In this document: positions 3,415-17,260 of the stretch, piece after piece | Layout of the letters: the number at the start of each line of letters is the position of its first letter | How positions within the stretch are numbered: the stretch's first letter is position 1 | Assembly: GCF_963921235.1 (NCBI RefSeq) | Contig: NC_086097.1 | Coordinates: 154,196,001-154,260,000 of the forward strand | Length of the DNA stretch: 64,000 bases | Source: Mobula hypostoma | Lineage: Eukaryota | Direction: 5' to 3' | Program-made: the position numbers and the translations under genes | Notes under the pieces: model-generated | The model's database searches: none | The model's input: only the letters and a program-made list of their open reading frames with translations | Told to the model about the DNA's origin: nothing

Positions 3415-6400
3415 GATAGAAACCATAGAAACCACAGCACAGAAACAGGCCTCTTGGCCCTTCTTGGCTGTGCCGAACCATTTACTGCCTAGTCCCACTG
3501 ACCTGCACATGGACCATATCCCTCCATACACCTCCCATCCATGTATCTGTCCAATTTATTCTTAAATGTTAAAAAAGAACCCGCATTTACCACCTCATCT
3601 GGCAGCTCATTCCATACACCCACCACTCTCTGTGTGAAGAAACCCCCACTAATGTTCCCTTTAAACTTTTCCCCCCTCACCCTTAACCCATGTCCTCTTT
3701 TTTTTTCTCCCCTTGCCTCAGTGGAAAAAGCCTGCTTGCATTCACTCTATCTATACCCATCATAATTTTATATACCTCTATCAAATCTCCCCTCATTCTT
3801 CTACGCTCCAGGCAATAAAGTCCTAACTTATTCAACCTTTCCCTGTAACTGAGTTTCTCAAGTCCTGGCAACATCCTTGTAAACCTTCTCTGCACTCTTT
3901 CAACCTTATTTATATCCTTCCTGTAATTTGGTGACCAAAACTGAACACAATACTCCAGATTCGGCCTCACCAATGCCTTATACAACCTCATCATAACATT
4001 CCAGCTCTTATACTCAATACTTTGATTAATAGAGGCCAATGTACCAAAAGCTCTCTTTACGACCCTATCTACCTGTGATGCCACTTTTAGGGAATTTTGT
4101 ATCTGTATTCCCAGATCCCTCTGTTCCACTGCACTCCTCCTTGCCTTACCATTAACCCTGTATGTTCTACCTTGGTTTGTCCTTCCAACGTGCAATACCT
4201 CACACTATTAAACTCCATCTGCCATTATTCAGCCCATTTTTCCAGCTGGTCCAAGTCCCTCTGCAGGCTCTGAAAATCTTCCTCACTGCCTACTACACCT
4301 CCAATCTTTGTATCATCAGCAAATTTGCTGATCCAATTTACCACATTATCATCCAGATCATTGATATAGATGACAAATAACAATGGACCTAGCACTGATC
4401 CCTGTGGCATACCACTAGTCACAGGCCTCCACTCAGAGAAGCAATTCTCTACCACCACTCTTTGGCTTCTACCATTGAGCCAATGTCTAATCCAATTTAC
4501 CACCTCTCCATGTATACCTAGAGACCGAATTTTCCTAACTAACCTCCCATGCGGGACCTTGTCAAAGGCCTTACTGAAATCCATGTAGACAATATCCACT
4601 GCCTTCCTTCATCCACTTTCCTGGTAACCTCCCCGAAAAACTCCAATAGGTTGGTCAAACATGACCTACCATGCACAAAGCCATGTTGACTCTCCCTAAT
4701 AAGTCCCTGTCTATCCAAATGCTTGTAGATTCTGTCTCTTAGTACTCCCTCCAATAATTTACCTACTACCGACGTTAAACTCACCGGCCTATAATTTCCC
4801 AGATTACTTTTCGATCCTTTTTTAAACAACGGAACAACATGAGCCACTCTCCAATCCTCCAGCACCTCACCCGTAGACAGTGACATTTTAAATATTTCTG
4901 CCAGGACCCCCGCAATTTCAACACTAGTCTCCTTCAAGGTCCGAGAGAACACTCCGTCAGGTCCCGGGGATTTATCCACTTTAATTTTCCTCAAGACAGC
5001 AAGGACCTCCTCCTTTTCAATCTGTACAGTTTCCATGATCTCACTACTTGATTCCCTCAATTCCATAGACTTCATGCCAGTTTCCTTAGTAAATACAGAC
5101 GCAAAAAACCTATTTAAGATCTCCCCCATTTCCTTTGGTTCCGCACATAGCTGACCACTCTGATCTTCAAGAGGACCAATTTTATCCTTTACAATCCTTT
5201 TGCTCTTAATATACCTGTAAAAGCTCTTTGGATTATCCTTCACTTTGACTGCCAAGATAACTTCATGTCTTCTTTTAGCCCTCCTGATTACTTTCTTAAG
5301 TATTTTCTTACACTTCTTATACTCCTCAAGCACCTGATTTACTCCCTGTTTCCTATACATTTCATACAACTCCCTCTTCTTCTTTATCAGAGTTGCAATA
5401 TCCCTTGAGAACCAAGGTTCCTTATTCCTATTCAATTTGCATTTAATCCTGACAGGAACATACAAACTCTGCACTCTCAAAATTTCCCCTTTGCAGGCTT
5501 CCCACCTACCAATCACATCTTTGCCAGAGAACAACCTGTCCCAATCCACGCTTTTTAGATCCTTTCTCATTTCTTCAAATTTGGCCTTCTTCCAGTTCAG
5601 AACCACAACCCGGGGACCAGATCTATCCTTGTCCATGATCAAATTGAAACTAATGGTGTTATGATTACTGGAACCAAAGTGCTCCCCTACACAGACTTCC
5701 GTCACTTGTCCTAACTCGTTTCCTAACAGGAGATCCAATATTGCATCCCCTCTAGTTGGTCCCACTATATATTGATTTAGAATACTTTCCTGAACACATT
5801 TTACAAACTCTAAACCATCTATACCCCTAACAGTATGGGAGTCCCAATCAATGTATGGAAAATTAAAATCCCCTACCACCACAACTTTATGTTTCCTGCA
5901 GTTGCCTGCTATCTCTCTGCAGATTTGCTCTTCCAAGTCTCGTTGACTATTGGGTGGTCTGTAATACAATCCCACTAATGTGGCCATACCTTTCCTGTTT
6001 CTCAGCTCCACCCATAAGGACTCAGTAGACAAGCCCTCCAATCTGTCCTGCCTGAGCACTGCTGTAATATTTTCCGTAACAAGCAATGTTACTCCCCCAT
6101 CTTTCATTCCTCTGCCTCGATCACATCTGAAACATCGGAACCCTGGAATATTAAGCTGACAGTTCTGCCCCTCCTGTAGCCAAGTTTCACTAATTGCTAT
6201 AACGTCATAATTCCACGTGTAATCCACGCCCTCAACTCATCTGCCTTCCCCGCAATACTCCTAGCATTGAAATATATACACCTCAGAAGATTTTTACCAA
6301 CACTCACAACCTTTCTATTAGCGGATTTGCTTGAACTTTATTTTCACCCCAGCCACACTGTCAGCTCTGGCACTCTGGTTCCCATCCCCCTGCAAATCTA

Positions 6401-7610
6401 GTTTACAGCCTCCCCACTAGCACTAACAAACCTCCCTGAAAGGATATTGGTCCCCCCGTAGTTCAAGTGTAACCCGTCTCTCTTGTGCAGGTCCCACCTG
6501 CCCCAGAAGAGGTCCCAATGATCCTGAAATCTGAAACCCTGCCCCCTACACCAGTTCCTCAGCCACCTGTTCATCCTCCAGAGCATCCTATTTTTACCCT
6601 CACTGGCACGTAGCACAGCTAGCAATCCTGAGATTACCACCCTTGAGGTCCTGTTTTTCCACTTCCTACCAAGCTCTCTATACTCACTCTCCAGGACCTC
6701 CTCACTCTTCCTTGCTATGTCATTGGTACCAATGTGCACCACAACATCTGGCTGGTCACCCTCCCACTTCAGAATGTCATGCAATCGATCGGAGAGATCC
6801 TTGACGCTGGCACCCGGGAGGCAACAAACCACCCTGGATTCTCTGTCACGACCACAGAACCTCCTATCTGCACCTCTAACTATCGAGTCCCCTATCACTA
6901 CTGCTCTCCTCTTTTTCCACCCTCCCTTCTGCACTGCAGAGCCAGACACAGTGCCAGAGATCCAGCTACTGCAGTTAGTCCCAGGTAAGTCATCCCCCAC
7001 AACAGTATCCAAAGCGGTATACTTGTTGTTGAGGGGAATAGCCACAGGGGAACCCTGCTCTGCCTGCCCTTTCCTCTTCCTTCACCTGACAGTGACCCAA
7101 TTTCCTGTCCTCTGCTCCTTTGGCGTAACTACCTCCCTGTAGCTACGATCTATAATCTCCTCATTCTCCCGAATGATCTGCAGGTCATCCAGCTCCTGCT
7201 CCAGTTCCCTAACGCAGTTTGTCAGGAGCTGCAGCTGGATGCACTTCTTGCAGGTGTCATTGTCAGGGACACCGGAGGGCTTCCTGACTTCCCACATCCT
7301 GCAAGAGGAGCATTCCAACATCCTGCCTGGCATTCTCTCTACTCTAAACAATCTGAACAAAAAACTTACCGGAACCTACCCTGGCCTCTGCCTGTTCTCG
7401 CTGAAGCCTGTTTGAGCCAAAGCTGTCCCACTCTGACTCAGTCCACTCCGACGATGGCTGCTGTATATGGCGGTCTGTTTTTAAACCTTGGCGCACTACG
7501 TCACGCGCCCGCGCAGTGCAGACCCTTCTCCCCGAGCAGTGTTTAAAAAAAAACGACTTTTTCTACCCGATTTCTTCCACTCTTCTTCTCAGCTGCTTGC
7601 TTCGACTGAA
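3415..7610 (-). mobile_element. Near full-length CR1 LINE (5' UTR, ORF1 Zn finger/leucine zipper plus SGNH esterase, ORF2 APE-RT, tail), frameshifted
   Basis: ORF pieces 7082-7360 (CSSC...CKKC...LEQELDDL), 6398-7045 (VIGDSIVRG...HIGTND...DGLHL), 4539-6227 (ETWL, GDFNFP, RT), 4225-4599 (FADD), 3683-4195 and 3489-3680. Short tandem tail at about 3415-3433. Confidence 0.95.
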
Positions 7611-10915: not shown

Positions 10916-11806
10916 TGAGACACCTTCCTCTTTTTCGTCACTGCCCTATGCTCTTTGTTTCTTTTAACACATGTAGCTCAGTCTTCATCCTACTCTTGAA
11001 ATGCTTCTTCTGGCTTTTCTCAAAAAATGGTATTCACTAAATCCTCAGTTGAAATCTCTTATCAGCATCTCATGCATTTTTTTGGGGAAAAATTCTAGTG
11101 TAGAACTTATTCCAAATGGCATATGCTTCCAGCAGTACTGCCCAAAATGCATAGGGAAGGTAATTAAATTTAACAAATGTTCATCTAAACATGTGCCAAA
11201 AATCATTCCAAATATCCAGAACAATAAATGCAATTGCACAATCTGGGCATGCAAGAATTTCTTTTACCAGCAGTAGAAAATGCTCTGTTTAAGAATCTAA
11301 AGTGATCTATCCTTATTTGACATTGACACCAACGAACTGATTCAATAATTAATATTGCTACGGCAGTCAGCCCACTCGTCTGCCCACATCATTCAGTGCT
11401 AATTTCAATTTATCAATTAAAGTCACTGGCATCCTCGAACATTTATCTTGTACCAAATCCACCATTTCATCACAAACAAGAGAAAATCTGCAAATGCTGG
11501 AAATCTAAAGCTGCGCACACAAAATGCTAGAGGAATGGGGCAGGCCAGGCAGCATCTATGCAAAAGACTAAACAGTTGATGTTTCAGGCCAAGGCCCTTC
11601 ATCAGACTGAAAAGCAAAGATAAACAACCTGATAGCATGAGCATCAAATTTTTGAACTTATAGTAATTATCCACCCCCCCGCTGCTTCAACATTTCTCAT
11701 TATTGTTTCCTTCTATCACCTTATCTTCTTATCTGCCCAACAACTCCCCCCATTCCCTTTGTTCCATGGTCTTCTATACTTTCCTATCTGATTTCTCCTT
11801 CCTATC

Positions 11807-12029
11807 TGTACTGTATAGCTATTGTATAATATGGGACTACTTTATGCTGTAGGGACACGTCATTGCATGCACTATGAGGCACGTATTCAGCATGCGTTAT
11901 TAGGTGCGTATTGATCTGTACGTGTGTGTTCAGTTCAGTTTCAGTCAGTAAAGAACCCTGTTAACTTAGCTCCCGTCTTCAGCAATTTTGTTTATAGTTT
12001 TGTTGTGTAACCCAGCCACATACACAACA
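11807..12029 (+). repeat. 5' LTR (223 bp)
   Basis: TGTACTGTATAGCT...TACACAACA. About 19 substitutions and no indels against the 3' LTR by manual count (~91.5% identity). Confidence 0.95.
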
Positions 12030-12032
12030 AAT

Positions 12033-12043
12033 TGGCGACGAGG
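12033..12043 (+). promoter_or_regulatory. Primer binding site, tRNA-Ser(GCU) type
   Basis: TGGCGACGAGG begins after a 3-nt gap downstream of the 5' LTR and is complementary to the tRNA-Ser(GCU) 3' end CCUCGUCG-CCA. Confidence 0.85.
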
Positions 12044-12394
12044 TTAATGAACCTACATCGTATCGGAACGCTGCGTTTTAATTGATAACAACGCTGGGAA
12101 GAAGAGCGCATAGAACGAGACAAGGAGCGGGAGAAGGAGGCTGCGAGTCCGAAAGGAAGCGGAAGCACAGCCGGGGTCAGGAACGTCAGGAGACCCAGAG
12201 ACACAGTCGGAGCCACAGCACATCTAGGCAAGACCACAGCAGGCACTCACCCCAGGGGCTGAGGGTCTGACTGCCCCAGAAGGGAGATAAAAAGGAACGA
12301 CACACACATCTAGACGGAGTGCGCTCTTGGCACTAGCAAAAAGGTCATGTGAGTCAAAAAAAAGGAAGAACAGGGCTAAATTAACATAACAAAG

Positions 12395-13139
12395 ATGACA
12401 ATGATTGGAACCTTTACAGCATTTGATAGTAGCATTGAAGACTGGGCAATTTACATTGAAAGAGTGGAGTTATATTGTGATGCAAACGATGTTAATGATG
12501 AAAAGAAAGCCAGCGTCTTACTCAGTATTATGGGAGCAAAATCATACGGGCTGCTATGGAGTTTGTTAACCCCTGAAAAGCAAGCTGACAAAACGGTCAA
12601 GCAAATAGTAGACACTCTCCAACAGTGTTTAAACCCCAAACCGCTGGTCATTGCTGAAAGATTTAAATTTCACAATCGGAATCAGAGCAAAAATGAAAGC
12701 ATTTCTGAATATTGTGCTGAATTGTGCAAATTCTCAGAACATTGTCAATTTGGAGCTGGTCTATCAGACGCATTGAGGGATAGGTTAGTGTGTGGCATGC
12801 ACTGTGAAACCACAGAGAAGAAGGTCCCGTGTGAAAGGGACTTTATATTAGAGAAGGCGCTGAACATTGCAATATCAACCGAAAAAGCCGCACAAAGTGC
12901 TTCCGAGATACAACAAAAATCTCTGGAATATGCTACGAATAAAATGTCACTGAGCAGAAATGAAGGGAAGAAATGTTACCGTTGTGGGAAAATGTCACAT
13001 GACCCCGATGGCTATTGGTTTAAAGATAAAGAATGCAGAAACTGTGGCAAACAGGGCCACACTGGCAGAGTATGCAAAGCTAGTAAACAGCAGAAAAAGG
13101 TCAAAATACAGAGAAACAAGAAACCCCAGAATGGAAAAT
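12395..13139 (+). pseudogene. Gypsy gag (capsid plus two Zn knuckles)
   Basis: ORF MTMIGTFTAFDSSIEDWAIYIERVELY...LRDRLVCG...CYRCGKMSH (first knuckle degenerate)...CRNCGKQGHTGRVC, interrupted by a CR1 at about 13140. Confidence 0.92.
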
Positions 13140-13141
13140 CC

Positions 13142-14312
13142 CAAGGTCCCACACAGGAGATTAGTGTGCAAACTTAAAGCACACGGTATTGGGGGTAAGG
13201 TATTGATGTGGATGGAGAATTGGTTAGCAGACAGGAAGCAAAGAGTGGGAATAAACGGGACCTTTTCAGAATGGCAGGCGGTGATTAGTGGGGTACCGCA
13301 AGGCTCAGTGCTGGGACCCCAGTTGTTTACAATATATATTGATGACTTAGACGAGGGAATGAAATGCAGCATCTCTAAGTTTGCAGATGACATGAAGCTG
13401 GGCGGCAGTGTTAGCTGTGAGGAGGATGCTAACAGGATGCAGGGTGACTTGGATAGTTTAGGTGAGTGGGCAAATTTATGACAGATGCAATTTAATGTGG
13501 ATAAATGTGAGGTTATCCACTTTGGTGGCAAGAACAGGAAAACAGATTATCTGAATGGTGGCCGATTAGGAAAAGGGGAGGTGCAACGAGACCTGGGTGT
13601 CATTGTACACCAGTCATTGAAAGTGGGCATGCAGGTACAGCAGGCGGTAAAAAAGGCGAATGGTATGCTGGCATTCATAGCAAGAGGATTCGAGTACAGG
13701 AGCAGGGAGGTACTACTGCAGTTGTACAAGGCCTTGGTGAGACCACACCTGGAGTATTGTGTGCAGTTTTGGTCCCCTAATCTGAGGAAAGACATCCTTG
13801 CCATAGACGGAGTACAAAGAAGGTTCACCAGATTGATTCCTGGGATGGCATGACTTTCATATGATGAAAGAATGGATCGACTAGGCTTATACTCTCTGGA
13901 ATTTAGAAGATTGGGGGGGGATCTTATTGAAACATATAAAACTCTAAAGGGATTGGACAGGCTAGATGTAGGAAGATGGTTCCCGATGTTGGGGAAGTCC
14001 GGAACGAGGGGTCACAGTTTGAGGATAAAGGGGAAGCCTCTTAGGACCGAGATGAGGAAAAACTTCTTCACACAGAGAGTGGTGAATCTGTGGGATTCTC
14101 TGCCACATGAAACAGTTCAGGCAAGTTCATTGGTTATATTTAAGAGGGAGTTAGATATGGCCCTTGTGGCTAAAGGGATCAGCGGGTATGGAGAGAAGGC
14201 AGGTATAGGATTCTGAGTTGGATGATCAGCCATGATCATACTGAATGTCAGTGCAGGCTCGAAGGGCTGATTGGCCTACTCCTGCACCTATTTTCTATGT
14301 TTCTATGTTTCT
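13142..14312 (+). mobile_element. 5'-truncated CR1 LINE inserted between gag and protease
   Basis: KVPHRRLVCKL...GVPQGSVLGP...SKFADD...LVRPHLEYCVQFWSP, ending in a (TTCTATGT)n tail. AAAAT occurs on both flanks. Confidence 0.93.
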
Positions 14313-14775
14313 AAAATACAAGGTACACAAAATGAAAGACGGCAGTTCTGCTGAAAACGAATCCGATGAAAGTGAATTGTCTTGTCTGCAACTTCACGCT
14401 GTGAAAGAGACAGATGATGGAAGAGTAATATGGATCACTCCACAAGTGACAGGTGTGAGACTGAAAATGCAGTTGGACACAGGCTCAGCTTTAACAGTGA
14501 TCTCTGTACATGACTACAAACTACTGTTTTCGCACATACCTCTGAAATGATCGAAACTTCTACAAAAAACTTACACAGGACAGAAAGTACGTCCTGAAGG
14601 CAAAATTAAAGTGACAATGACCTACAGTGATAAAACACAGCAACTGAACCTCTATGTACTGAAAAATAGAGGACCATCATTGCTGGGACGTGAATGACTC
14701 AGGAAAATCCAGTTGGATTGGCACACCATCAAGGCACTAGATGTGTCAACAAAGGAGGGCAGCTTGGCAGGGAAG
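14313..14775 (+). pseudogene. Gypsy aspartic protease region
   Basis: KYKVHKM...LKMQLDTGSALTVIS...KTYTG...GPSLLGRE*LRKIQLDW in one frame, with two premature TGA stops (14548, 14695). Confidence 0.9.
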
Positions 14776-15385
14776 ATGTCCGCAGCTCTCCTCTCACCCA
14801 TTGTCAACTATTACAACGATAAGGAGGAGCTAGACAGCATCAACAGGGAGACAGATATTGCCAATAAAGCAGGATGATGAAGACCACCTGGAAGTAAAAG
14901 AGCAGATGCACCAGGAGAAATTGACATCTCTCAAAAGACAGTTACAGGAAGGCATTTTACATAAGTATCAGAAAAGGATGAAGAAATTAGATCAACAATA
15001 CAAGGGAAGGATATGAAATGCAGAGCTTTTCCTGCAACTGGAGACAGAACAAGTGGAAAGGAACTGTATTAAAGAGAAGAAGGCAGCAGTGAAGGAACTT
15101 GAAGATAAAAAGATTGAGTTAAAAGAAAAGAAAAAGTTGATTGAGAATGAGAGGCTAACAATGGAACTCACAGGAGATTCTATGGAGGTAAAGCCAATAA
15201 TGACTAGGAAACTAAGGAGGAGAACTAATGATCCTGTTCCAATTACAGACAGAAGACGAAAACCTGCACCTGCGCAGTTAAATTACTTGTTAACAGATGA
15301 ACAGATAATGAAAGATCTGCAAACTCTCAATAAGCTTAAATCGCTGAAAAGATCATCATCTCCATCTTCTCCTGAACAATTTCCT
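14776..15385 (+). pseudogene. SUDS3: Processed (intronless) SUDS3/SDS3 copy, start codon to about SSPSSPE, captured in the LTR element
   Basis: MSAALLSP...[21 protein letters not shown]...[13 protein letters not shown]...[16 protein letters not shown]...[49 protein letters not shown] closely matches vertebrate SDS3. It has a frameshift near 14865 and a TGA at 15014. Confidence 0.95.
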
Positions 15386-16219
15386 TGGGAAAGATCCATG
15401 AAAATTGGTCATCCCTTAAAAGCTCTTAGACAAAATCAATTCCATTCAAACAAAACAGCTTTCGCACAAGGTAAATCTTGAACCAATCATTTCCTCCATT
15501 GAGAGTCATACACTTCATCCTTTGCAGGGAAGTTTCTTTTTGCACGTACATATTTTGAATCCTCAGCCAATGTGTCTTGTTTTGCACAAAGAAGTTGGGA
15601 AACAGCATCAGAGCAGAGGCGAATTCTGGCAACAAACTAAGTTTTCTGTTGTTGCATTTTCACACTCGTGCTGAATGCGCATCTGATGGAATCCTCCCTC
15701 TTGAGCTAGGTACGCAATCTTTTCTTGCACTGTGCACAACTGGGATTTTTCACACATAGGATCCTCCAAACAATTCAGAAACAGTGCATAGAGTTCAGTC
15801 TCATTTTCTTGACCAAGATTTGTTTTTTTTTAAACTTCAGACAGATAGCACTGCAAGTAATCCTTAATATCAGCAAAACTGTACTTTAACAGCAGCTTAA
15901 GAACAATGGAACAAACAACAGGATTTCGATCAACTGCTTCATCAAATGGTGAAAGATTACTGATAAAGTACTGATCTTTCTGTGAGTTATCATTGGATTG
16001 CCCTGACTTTTGAATAACTAGCATAGACAGCAGATCACCAACCACTTCTTTTGTTGGTGCCAAGTCATCTTTGAAGCAAACCATGGAAAACAAAGCTACG
16101 AAAAATGCATCACACCTCTTGCGAAATATGACTAATTTTGCTACAGCTTCACTTATTTCTTCTGTTGCCGCTGGTACATAACCATCATCTAGAGAAGTAT
16201 GGCACAGTGGGCAGAGTCC
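15372..16219 (-). pseudogene. RNF213: Processed RNF213 (mysterin)-like cDNA fragment, from the end of the RING domain into the E3 region, antisense to the LTR element
   Basis: Minus strand reads GLCPLCHTSLDDGY...FRKRCDAFFVALFSMVCFKD...LSPFDEAVDRNPVVCSIVLKLLLKYSFADIKDYLQ...TELYALFLNCLED...VARIRLC...[12 protein letters not shown]...WIFPKE. This is colinear with recalled RNF213 (LSPFNDVVDKTPVIRSVILKLLLKYSF; NDWHRVYLVRKL; WVFPKD). Stops and frameshifts are present and there are no introns. Confidence 0.92.
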
Positions 16220-16413
16220 CCCCAGACCCTTGAGTTATAAATGGGTCTTCGACCAAAAGTAAAAGAAGGGCTTGTTATAATTTAATATTATTATTTTACT
16301 TTGTTATAATTGATATTATTAAGTAGTAAACAATTGGTAGCCATTTGTATGTTAAGGGTAAACATATTTGCATAGCACAGTGCCCCAGTAAAAAAAACAG
16401 TTGATACACTATT

Positions 16414-16431
16414 AAAATAAAAGGGGAGGAG
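16414..16431 (+). promoter_or_regulatory. Polypurine tract
   Basis: AAAATAAAAGGGGAGGAG immediately precedes the TG of the 3' LTR. Confidence 0.88.
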
Positions 16432-16654
16432 TGTACTGTATAGCTACCGTATAACATGGGACGACTTTATGCTGTAGGGACACGTCATTGCATGCTCTAT
16501 GAGGCACGTATTCAGCATGCGTTATTAGGCGCATATTGATCTGTACATGTGTATACAGTTCTGTTTCAGTCAGTAAAGAACCCTGTTAACTTAGCTCCCG
16601 TCTCCAGCGTTTTTATTTATAGCTTTGTTGTGTAACCTGGCCATATACACAACA
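16432..16654 (+). repeat. 3' LTR (223 bp)
   Basis: Direct repeat of 11807-12029. Confidence 0.95.
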
Positions 16655-17260
16655 GTCTCCTTCACCAAAGAACCTCCTACCTCTTTACTTCACCCCTCCC
16701 CCTTTCCTGGTTTTACCTATCATCTGCCACCTCTACTTCTTCCTCCCCTCCCGCACCTTCTTACTCTGACTTCCTCTTCCTTTCCAGTCCTGATGAAGTG
16801 TCTTATCTTGAAACATCAGCTGTTTGCTCTTTTCCATAGATGCTGCCTGGCCTGCTGAGCTTCCCCAGCATTTTGTGTGTGTTACTACTATTTCATTTAG
16901 TCTGATTTGGCATCCTGCTTTAAGTTTTCCAATTGTGTCAGGGCTTCTTTGCTTGAATCGAATATCGCTATGATGATTATACATTCTAGTATCAATTGTT
17001 TGGTGACAATAAAGTATAAAGATAAGAAAGATAAGAAGATAAGAAAGGTAAACATCACTTGATTAATGGCTATTAGTCATTTAATACAAGTCAAGACTCT
17101 AGTTGATGGTGTTTTCTTATCATTATTTTTATAATATCTCTGATAAAATATGCAGAGATTTTATAGTAGTACCATCCACAAACTTAAAATGTCCCCGACC
17201 TGTGCTGAATCAATAATTGTACCTACTCACCAAATCGAAGCTAAAAACTACCATAAGTTA

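Follow-up and report, generated by a model that had tools for sequence, protein, structure and literature searches.

The stretch of Mobula hypostoma DNA analyzed here (64,000 nucleotides; NCBI contig NC_086097.1, forward-strand positions 154,196,001 to 154,260,000; hereafter the window) contains a long terminal repeat (LTR) element at positions 11807-16654, in which an intronless copy of the host gene SUDS3, encoding SDS3, follows gag and protease in one reading frame. The element is probably a decayed copy of a non-autonomous Ty3/Gypsy retrotransposon in which spliced SUDS3 took the place of reverse transcriptase (RT), RNase H (RH) and integrase (IN); an origin by template switching, copying in trans by a pol-bearing partner family and a passenger role for SDS3 are all likely. 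Among vertebrate examples of LTR-mediated gene capture, this family is unusually large and documents serial captures in its subfamilies; its many copies make it testable whether a captured cargo must keep its reading frame.

Structure of the chimeric element

The element lies on the + strand between a 5′ LTR (11807-12029; 223 nt, beginning TGT and ending ACA) and a 3′ LTR (16432-16654), which are 91.5% identical to each other. Directly behind the 5′ LTR is a likely primer-binding site (12030-12043, +), assigned from its position on the presumption of standard LTR-element anatomy. An open gag frame with two CCHC knuckles (12395-13139, +) has a Retrotrans_gag match in a sister copy and shares 58% identity with single-open-reading-frame (single-ORF) Gypsy gag-pol, a value that also holds for gag-protease as a whole against a 1311-residue single-ORF Gypsy polyprotein. 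Behind gag lies a 5′-truncated long interspersed nuclear element (LINE; 13140-14317, +; RVT_1 match, E=5e-11) flanked by AAAAT at 13135 and 14313. This insert, presumably a CR1, is found only in the window’s copy and is absent from the sister copies compared; related sequences are also present elsewhere in the window. The gag-pol linker and an aspartic protease with a DTG motif follow (14318-14763, +), with two stops in the window’s copy and a gag-asp_proteas match, below the cut-off, in a sister copy.

The element changes to host sequence exactly at 14757-14763 (+), a 7-nt microhomology between partner pol and the SUDS3 5′ untranslated region (UTR) that marks the capture point. Twelve nucleotides of SUDS3 5′UTR are then read in frame (14764-14775, +), placing the join 12 nt upstream of the ATG, and are followed by intronless SUDS3 codons 1 to ~233 (14776-15384, +), 93% identical to the 12-exon host gene. 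Compared with that gene, this part has three deletions that keep the frame (57, 9 and 24 nt), one inserted nucleotide and a stop. Next comes a piece of RNF213 coding sequence antisense to the element (15385-16217, − strand; PDB RNF213 matches, E=6e-33), into which the SUDS3 frame of the window’s copy continues until a stop at 15479-15481. The 3′ end of the element (16218-16431, +) comprises the last pol codons, 3′UTR and a polypurine tract at 16419-16431, and matches the 3′ end of pol-bearing partner copies.

A preliminary description of this locus had read gag into protease in frame once the LINE is removed at AAAAT (...PQNGK / YKVHKM...), and the protease frame (...KEGSLAGK) into the SUDS3 ATG at 14776, with TGA stops at 14548, 14695 and 15014, a small insertion near 14865 and a downstream end at 15481 in antisense RNF213. 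We found all of these coordinates to be right, the insertion being 1 nt long, and sister copies without the LINE read through from gag to protease in one frame. The description had missed the three in-frame SUDS3 deletions, the 5′UTR limit and the multicopy family; only the final 12 nt before the SUDS3 ATG are host 5′UTR, and the residues KEGS are element sequence.

SUDS3 was identified through matches of a sister copy’s protein to PDB entries 4zqa (E=4.5e-29) and 2n2h and to Pfam Sds3; a Pfam scan of the window’s own broken pieces gave no Sds3 or protease match, and identity was assigned via the sister copies and PDB. The closest named proteins come from Pristis, Mobula and Hemitrygon. The host SUDS3 gene, located via a motif that occurs exactly once in the genome, encodes 319 residues in 12 coding exons spread over 59 kb; the element copies are intronless. 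Intron 7 of the host gene has AT-AC ends, which we take to be those of the minor-spliceosome type, and is cleanly missing from the element’s copy.

A pol-bearing partner family

A second family shares LTR, gag and protease with the chimeras (86 exact 25-mer matches) and carries pol. We found pol sequence behind the join site in 26 fetched partner copies, one of which aligns across residues 1-1311 of the Gypsy polyprotein; six other loci fetched as possible partners were left out for want of the join motif. In the partner copies, RT-RH-IN sits between the same two join sites, in the order gag-protease-RT-RH-IN within a single ORF, and the 3′ LTR follows a few hundred bases past pol, which leaves no room for env. 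The nearest relatives are single-ORF Gypsy polyproteins rather than members of the Retroviridae. Judged by sequence, the backbone is a Ty3/Gypsy LTR retrotransposon, a class assignment made from these relatives. In a gag-protease tree, chimeric copies are interspersed with partner copies, as repeated recombination would predict.

Microhomology is present at each join that we could define, spanning 7 nt both at the 5′ join and at the short 3′ join, and ~10 nt at a further join to YB-1 described below. A search for the host RNF213 gene, in which 150 of 229 candidates were scored, did not find it. Four of the features by which LTR-mediated retrocopies are recognized are found here: intronless host copies (SUDS3, YB-1), replacement of part of the ORF with both LTRs kept, microsimilarity at the switch points, and secondary retroposition.

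Size, subfamilies and history of the family

A 1-kb query returned 690 first-look candidates (40 scored) and a SUDS3 C-terminus query 391 (150 scored), while a 30-nt pattern spanning the join gave 68 exact matches and its reversed control 0. All 68 copies with the exact join, the window’s included, were examined. They comprise 38 type A copies holding the whole SUDS3 coding sequence and its 3′UTR; 14 type B copies, which like the window’s copy are cut near codon 233 and then run into antisense RNF213; and 16 copies of other forms, including type C, with the RNF213 piece inside full SUDS3, and type D, with SUDS3 cut at ~codon 127 and joined to YB-1 cDNA. In a pool of 159 distinct copies, which is not a random sample, types A, B, C and D account for 67, 44, 13 and 29 copies, respectively, and the other 6 are truncated. 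The family thus has at least 159 distinct copies and likely numbers several hundred overall.

Copies lie at dispersed loci with their own LTR pairs, and many show 5-bp target duplications. Median LTR-LTR identity is 0.914 (24 copies), and the SUDS3 tree is star-shaped (terminal branches 2.91 versus internal 0.21), the form of a burst. The target duplication of the window’s element is itself degraded (3 of 5 letters match). In C-type copies, ~310 nt separate the RNF213 piece from the resumed SUDS3 and may be more RNF213 or another captured RNA. A second B-type copy lies ~126 kb beyond the window’s copy; the RNF213 parts of the two are 94% identical, the highest identity we saw for this part.

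According to the preliminary description, the ancestral element could have expressed a C-terminally truncated SDS3. This did not hold up: because 38 of the 68 copies hold full SUDS3 with its 3′UTR, full-length SUDS3 was most likely captured first and truncation is secondary. Judging by how the parts are nested, the simplest history begins with full-length SUDS3, which gained RNF213 and YB-1 later. The family is likely older than at least one species split, since three annotated Mobula birostris “SDS3-like” proteins carry the same 8-residue deletion as the family and run X12, which bears another organism label, contains contigs crossing the join. The element family is likely the source of the “SDS3-like” genes annotated in Mobula. 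It likely also accounts for the high rank of SUDS3 among retrocopy parents in cartilaginous fishes, where the available part of a preprint lists it among the top parents (10.64898/2026.06.26.734816).

The reading frame across the family

The distance between the join and SUDS3 codon 1 is 12 nt in 64 of the 68 copies and 21 nt in one more, so that 65 of 68 are in frame; the continuous gag-protease-SUDS3 arrangement is a family feature and no artefact of the window’s copy. In one natural copy, 461 codons can be read without a break across both joins, from gag into SUDS3, and no copy of the 68 is open end to end. A multi-copy comparison had been suggested as a check on the stops of the window’s copy, and we found these to be minority states rather than family-wide ones: the TGAs at 14548, 14695 and 15014 occur in 16/59, 6/60 and 27/68 chimeric copies, respectively, and the first two also in 5/24 and 1/25 partner copies. 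This is the pattern of repeated decay after insertion. Since the stops are recurrent minority states, a single frame running from gag through the last SUDS3 codon most likely existed in the founders.

Both lineage-level SUDS3 deletions keep the frame, the 24-nt one being family-wide and the 57-nt one present in 20 of 158 copies. Across the 158 copies, no frame-breaking SUDS3 indel defines a lineage; a 29-nt loss occurs in four copies that are no more similar to one another than average, and so looks recurrent. One B-type copy carries spliced RPS8, sense to the element and upstream of gag (4902-5331 of that locus); as it sits in the leader, this capture has no bearing on the frame test.

A second capture in frame

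In D copies, SUDS3 is joined near codon 127 to the 5′UTR of a Y-box gene at the ~10-nt match noted above. The cargo was identified as YB-1 by its cold-shock domain and by a host gene with seven matching exons, and is itself intronless. Subfamily D occupies ~30 loci and has ~700 nt of YB-1 cDNA behind SUDS3, followed by antisense RNF213; the YB-1 part is a median 94% identical to the host gene. In 19 of 27 copies the YB-1 ATG continues the SUDS3 frame. The copies that are 1 nt shorter differ within a stretch of C and are dispersed over the tree. Fixed changes in YB-1 number two replacements to one silent. The YB-1|RNF213 join also reaches the window’s stop in 23 of 24 copies, which we did not count as frame evidence because the C-type join does not reach it. 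The in-frame capture of YB-1 is new here.

Selection on the SUDS3 cargo

Changes private to single copies match the neutral expectation in SUDS3: for transitions, the ratio of replacement plus stop to silent changes is 178:80 against 594:304 possible, and for transversions 312:52 against 1640:268. As a positive control, shared transversions in gag-protease of chimeric copies are enriched for silent changes (20:11 versus 418:52 private, p=6e-4), as are those of the partners (11:9 versus 212:33, p=0.001). The gag-protease signal in the chimeras may be inherited from the partners, because the two interleave in the tree. In SUDS3, shared transversions show no silent enrichment (4:0 versus 296:46 private) and neither do shared transitions (18:11 versus 145:61, p=0.39).

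Subfamily-diagnostic SUDS3 changes away from the joins are five replacements to no silent change, after 6 of 11 entries were dropped as join-edge artefacts. Three family-wide replacements fall at residues where six checked proteins (from fish, ray and mammal) keep the host residue, one of these proteins having no third site. Copies of types B and C, which are without the C-terminal domain, and D copies cut at ~codon 127 still multiplied. A comparison of replacement and silent change in captured SUDS3, the other check that had been suggested, thus pointed to no constraint: private changes are neutral and inherited ones mostly replacements. From these sequence comparisons, purifying selection on the SUDS3 cargo was not detected, at low power.

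Putative transcripts crossing the join

We searched contigs of sequencing runs whose RNA status could only be guessed. Two contigs from run X2, which is guessed to hold RNA, span the join; one derives from a D copy open for 63 codons before the join and 105 after it. No intact fusion transcript was found among the join-crossing contigs traced, and none of these traced to the window’s copy. Runs X9 and X11 yielded only host-type contigs on exon 1, which is no evidence of absence. A contig from a broken, internally deleted D copy near 85.92 Mb reaches a depth of ~2190 in X2 (~7 in X4), possibly reflecting a strongly transcribed non-coding copy.

Proposed origin and possible role of the captured sequences

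We propose that the chimera arose inside particles of the partner. RT would have switched from element RNA to co-packaged SUDS3 mRNA within its 3′UTR, copied that mRNA nearly to its 5′ end, and returned to the element at the 7-nt match; in such a mechanism the join falls just before the ATG because RT is near the SUDS3 5′ end before switching back. The chimera would then have been mobilized in trans by the pol-bearing partner. Since gag and pol form one ORF in this clade, founder RNAs would presumably have been translated as Gag-protease-cargo, and the join falls near residue 400 of the related 1311-residue polyprotein. An open frame may have been mildly favored through RNA stability or the use of Gag in cis, with the amino-acid sequence of the cargo free to drift. 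SDS3 itself was likely carried along as a passenger and not as a functioning corepressor.

Several results weigh against a passenger cargo. All four lineage-level events in the in-frame region (protease|SUDS3, the 24-nt and 57-nt deletions, and SUDS3|YB-1) keep the frame. Downstream of the stop, the two large deletions that copies share, one of 131 nt (37 copies) and one of 32 nt (7 copies), are not multiples of three, a contrast suggesting that translation of the cargo region may have mattered. An unbroken SUDS3 frame is seen in 4 of 71 full-length copies versus 1.65 expected, in a pool enriched for long frames. Pooling copies gives a ratio of replacement to silent differences per site (pN/pS) of 0.38 relative to the host gene, the family-wide differences comprise 12 silent changes and 3 replacements, and an unstratified test of shared versus private changes gives p=0.026. 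Finally, the replicating lineage was short, which leaves the selection tests with low power throughout.

The constraint-like figures among these are weakened by host-lineage change and transition bias. We rejected the pooled pN/pS as a selection test, because it mixes in change on the host lineage, and the unstratified test after separating transitions from transversions. Only 2 of the 12 silent sites could be polarized with sequence from other organisms, one of them with mixed outgroups: run X9 has the element letter at both, and X11 agrees with the host at one site and differs from host and element alike at the other. For these two sites the comparison suggests host-lineage change.

For the reading frame, we took as null expectations ~1/3 for the join, 22/39 for repeat-guided deletions and 30/107 for private indels. 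The three frame-keeping events left after setting aside the join that prompted the finding then have a joint chance of ~0.05-0.1, a hint that an open frame through the cargo region was favored. This hint does not show SDS3 activity, because C and D copies spread despite having lost SDS3 segments.

At the no-selection end of our preferred explanation, the frame would be due to pure chance and microhomology bias, and translation of the cargo region would never have mattered. We consider this a real possibility, somewhat short of even. About 6 of 17 shared 7-mers in the 5′UTR would yield an in-frame join, within the coding sequence an in-frame spacing separates 22 of 39 direct repeats of ≥6 nt, and the 24-nt deletion lies between two such repeats. 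The C-type join shifts the frame to an early stop and still spread (14 of 17 copies at that offset), and the first join is the reason the locus was chosen. Against chance stand the three events that played no part in choosing the locus and all keep the frame, together with the lack of a lineage-defining frame-breaking SUDS3 indel among the 158 copies.

A working cargo is unlikely. On such an account, Gag-protease-SDS3, perhaps cleaved, would bind Sin3/HDAC and either hinder silencing or bring HDAC into the particle, with YB-1 adding an RNA chaperone. Consistent with it, joins and deletions keep the frame and the Sin3-binding segment is kept in A, B and C copies. Within the available text of each source, Sds3 is described as giving dimerization and Sin3/HDAC contacts and as targeting pericentric heterochromatin (PMC8800102), HIV-1 virions as packaging Sin3a-HDAC1 parts that aid reverse transcription (PMC3185528), and HIV replication as supported by YB-1 (PMC6040738). 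However, no purifying selection was detected on SUDS3 and the fixed changes in YB-1 do not favor silent sites. In addition, both D copies, which are missing the Sin3-binding segment, and C copies, whose frame ends just past it behind codon 225, spread; and the join-crossing contigs in the likely-RNA run trace to broken copies. The family-wide 8-residue deletion also lies within the solved 4zqa segment, which we take to be the dimerizing coiled coil. A bolder version, in which the Gypsy gag-protease ORF served as a carrier of host proteins (SDS3, then YB-1, each in frame via its 5′UTR) and the fusion helped the element to out-replicate silencing in a burst to hundreds of copies, strikes us as similarly improbable. 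If true, it would be a gag-onc-like strategy outside retroviruses; had the cargo helped the element, this would be a transposon using a host silencing subunit.

A LINE-made SUDS3 retrocopy inside an LTR element at this locus, or a domesticated host gene, is very improbable: the window is rich in LINEs and the available part of a preprint links retrocopy abundance to non-LTR elements in general (10.64898/2026.06.26.734816), but pol is replaced and not interrupted, the inspected joins have no poly(A), microhomology is present at both ends, the same join at no fewer than 68 dispersed loci with their own LTR pairs already contradicts a LINE origin, and the three stops, frameshift and LINE insert of the window’s copy speak against domestication.

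Other features of the window

A short interspersed repeat encloses the LTR element (11471-11606 and 16790-16886) and recurs many times within the window. On the minus strand, positions 4539-7081 hold a LINE whose ORF1 encodes an esterase (GDSL-like) and whose ORF2 encodes an endonuclease-RT.

Comparison with known systems

We found no description of the SUDS3 element family in the literature searched, which did not extend to most subscription papers; the supplements of the preprint may list copies.

In the gag-onc fusions of acutely transforming retroviruses, spliced host sequence stands in frame behind gag, replication genes are lost and a helper is needed. The resemblance to these fusions, proposed in the preliminary description, stands for the in-frame captured spliced host sequence, the loss of replication genes and the likely dependence on a helper. 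It does not extend to the backbone, which is Ty3/Gypsy with a single gag-pol ORF and not retroviral, or to the place of the cargo, which follows protease in the stead of RT-RH-IN.

Animal LTR-mediated retrocopies are closer. As described in the available text of Tan et al, 2016 (PMC5131818), they too have spliced mRNA replacing an internal part of the ORF and short matches at the switch points (median 6 bp, against 7-10 here), and they likewise combine several parental genes and undergo secondary retroposition. Copies in that account are few (one to five for Bs1), whereas the present family has at least 159, with serial-capture subfamilies and two host genes taken up in the sense direction and in frame with gag-protease. 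Maize Bs1, as told in the same text, is alike in having an LTR shell with pieces of host genes (three genes, two in frame and one out of frame) and switch points common to all copies; it differs in being reported as a functional hybrid protein at low copy number, whereas here 0 of 68 copies are intact and no constraint on the cargo was detected. Crocodilian endogenous retroviruses, according to the accessible part of PMC4299795, captured KIT-ligand and nectin3, and resemble our family as vertebrate LTR elements that took up whole host mRNAs, amplified, and carry in-frame indels common to copies; there the ORFs are open and test as under purifying selection, whereas the SUDS3 cargo decays like the rest of the element. 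Our best reading is an amplified LTR-mediated retrocopy with passenger cargo, similar to gag-onc fusions in layout only.

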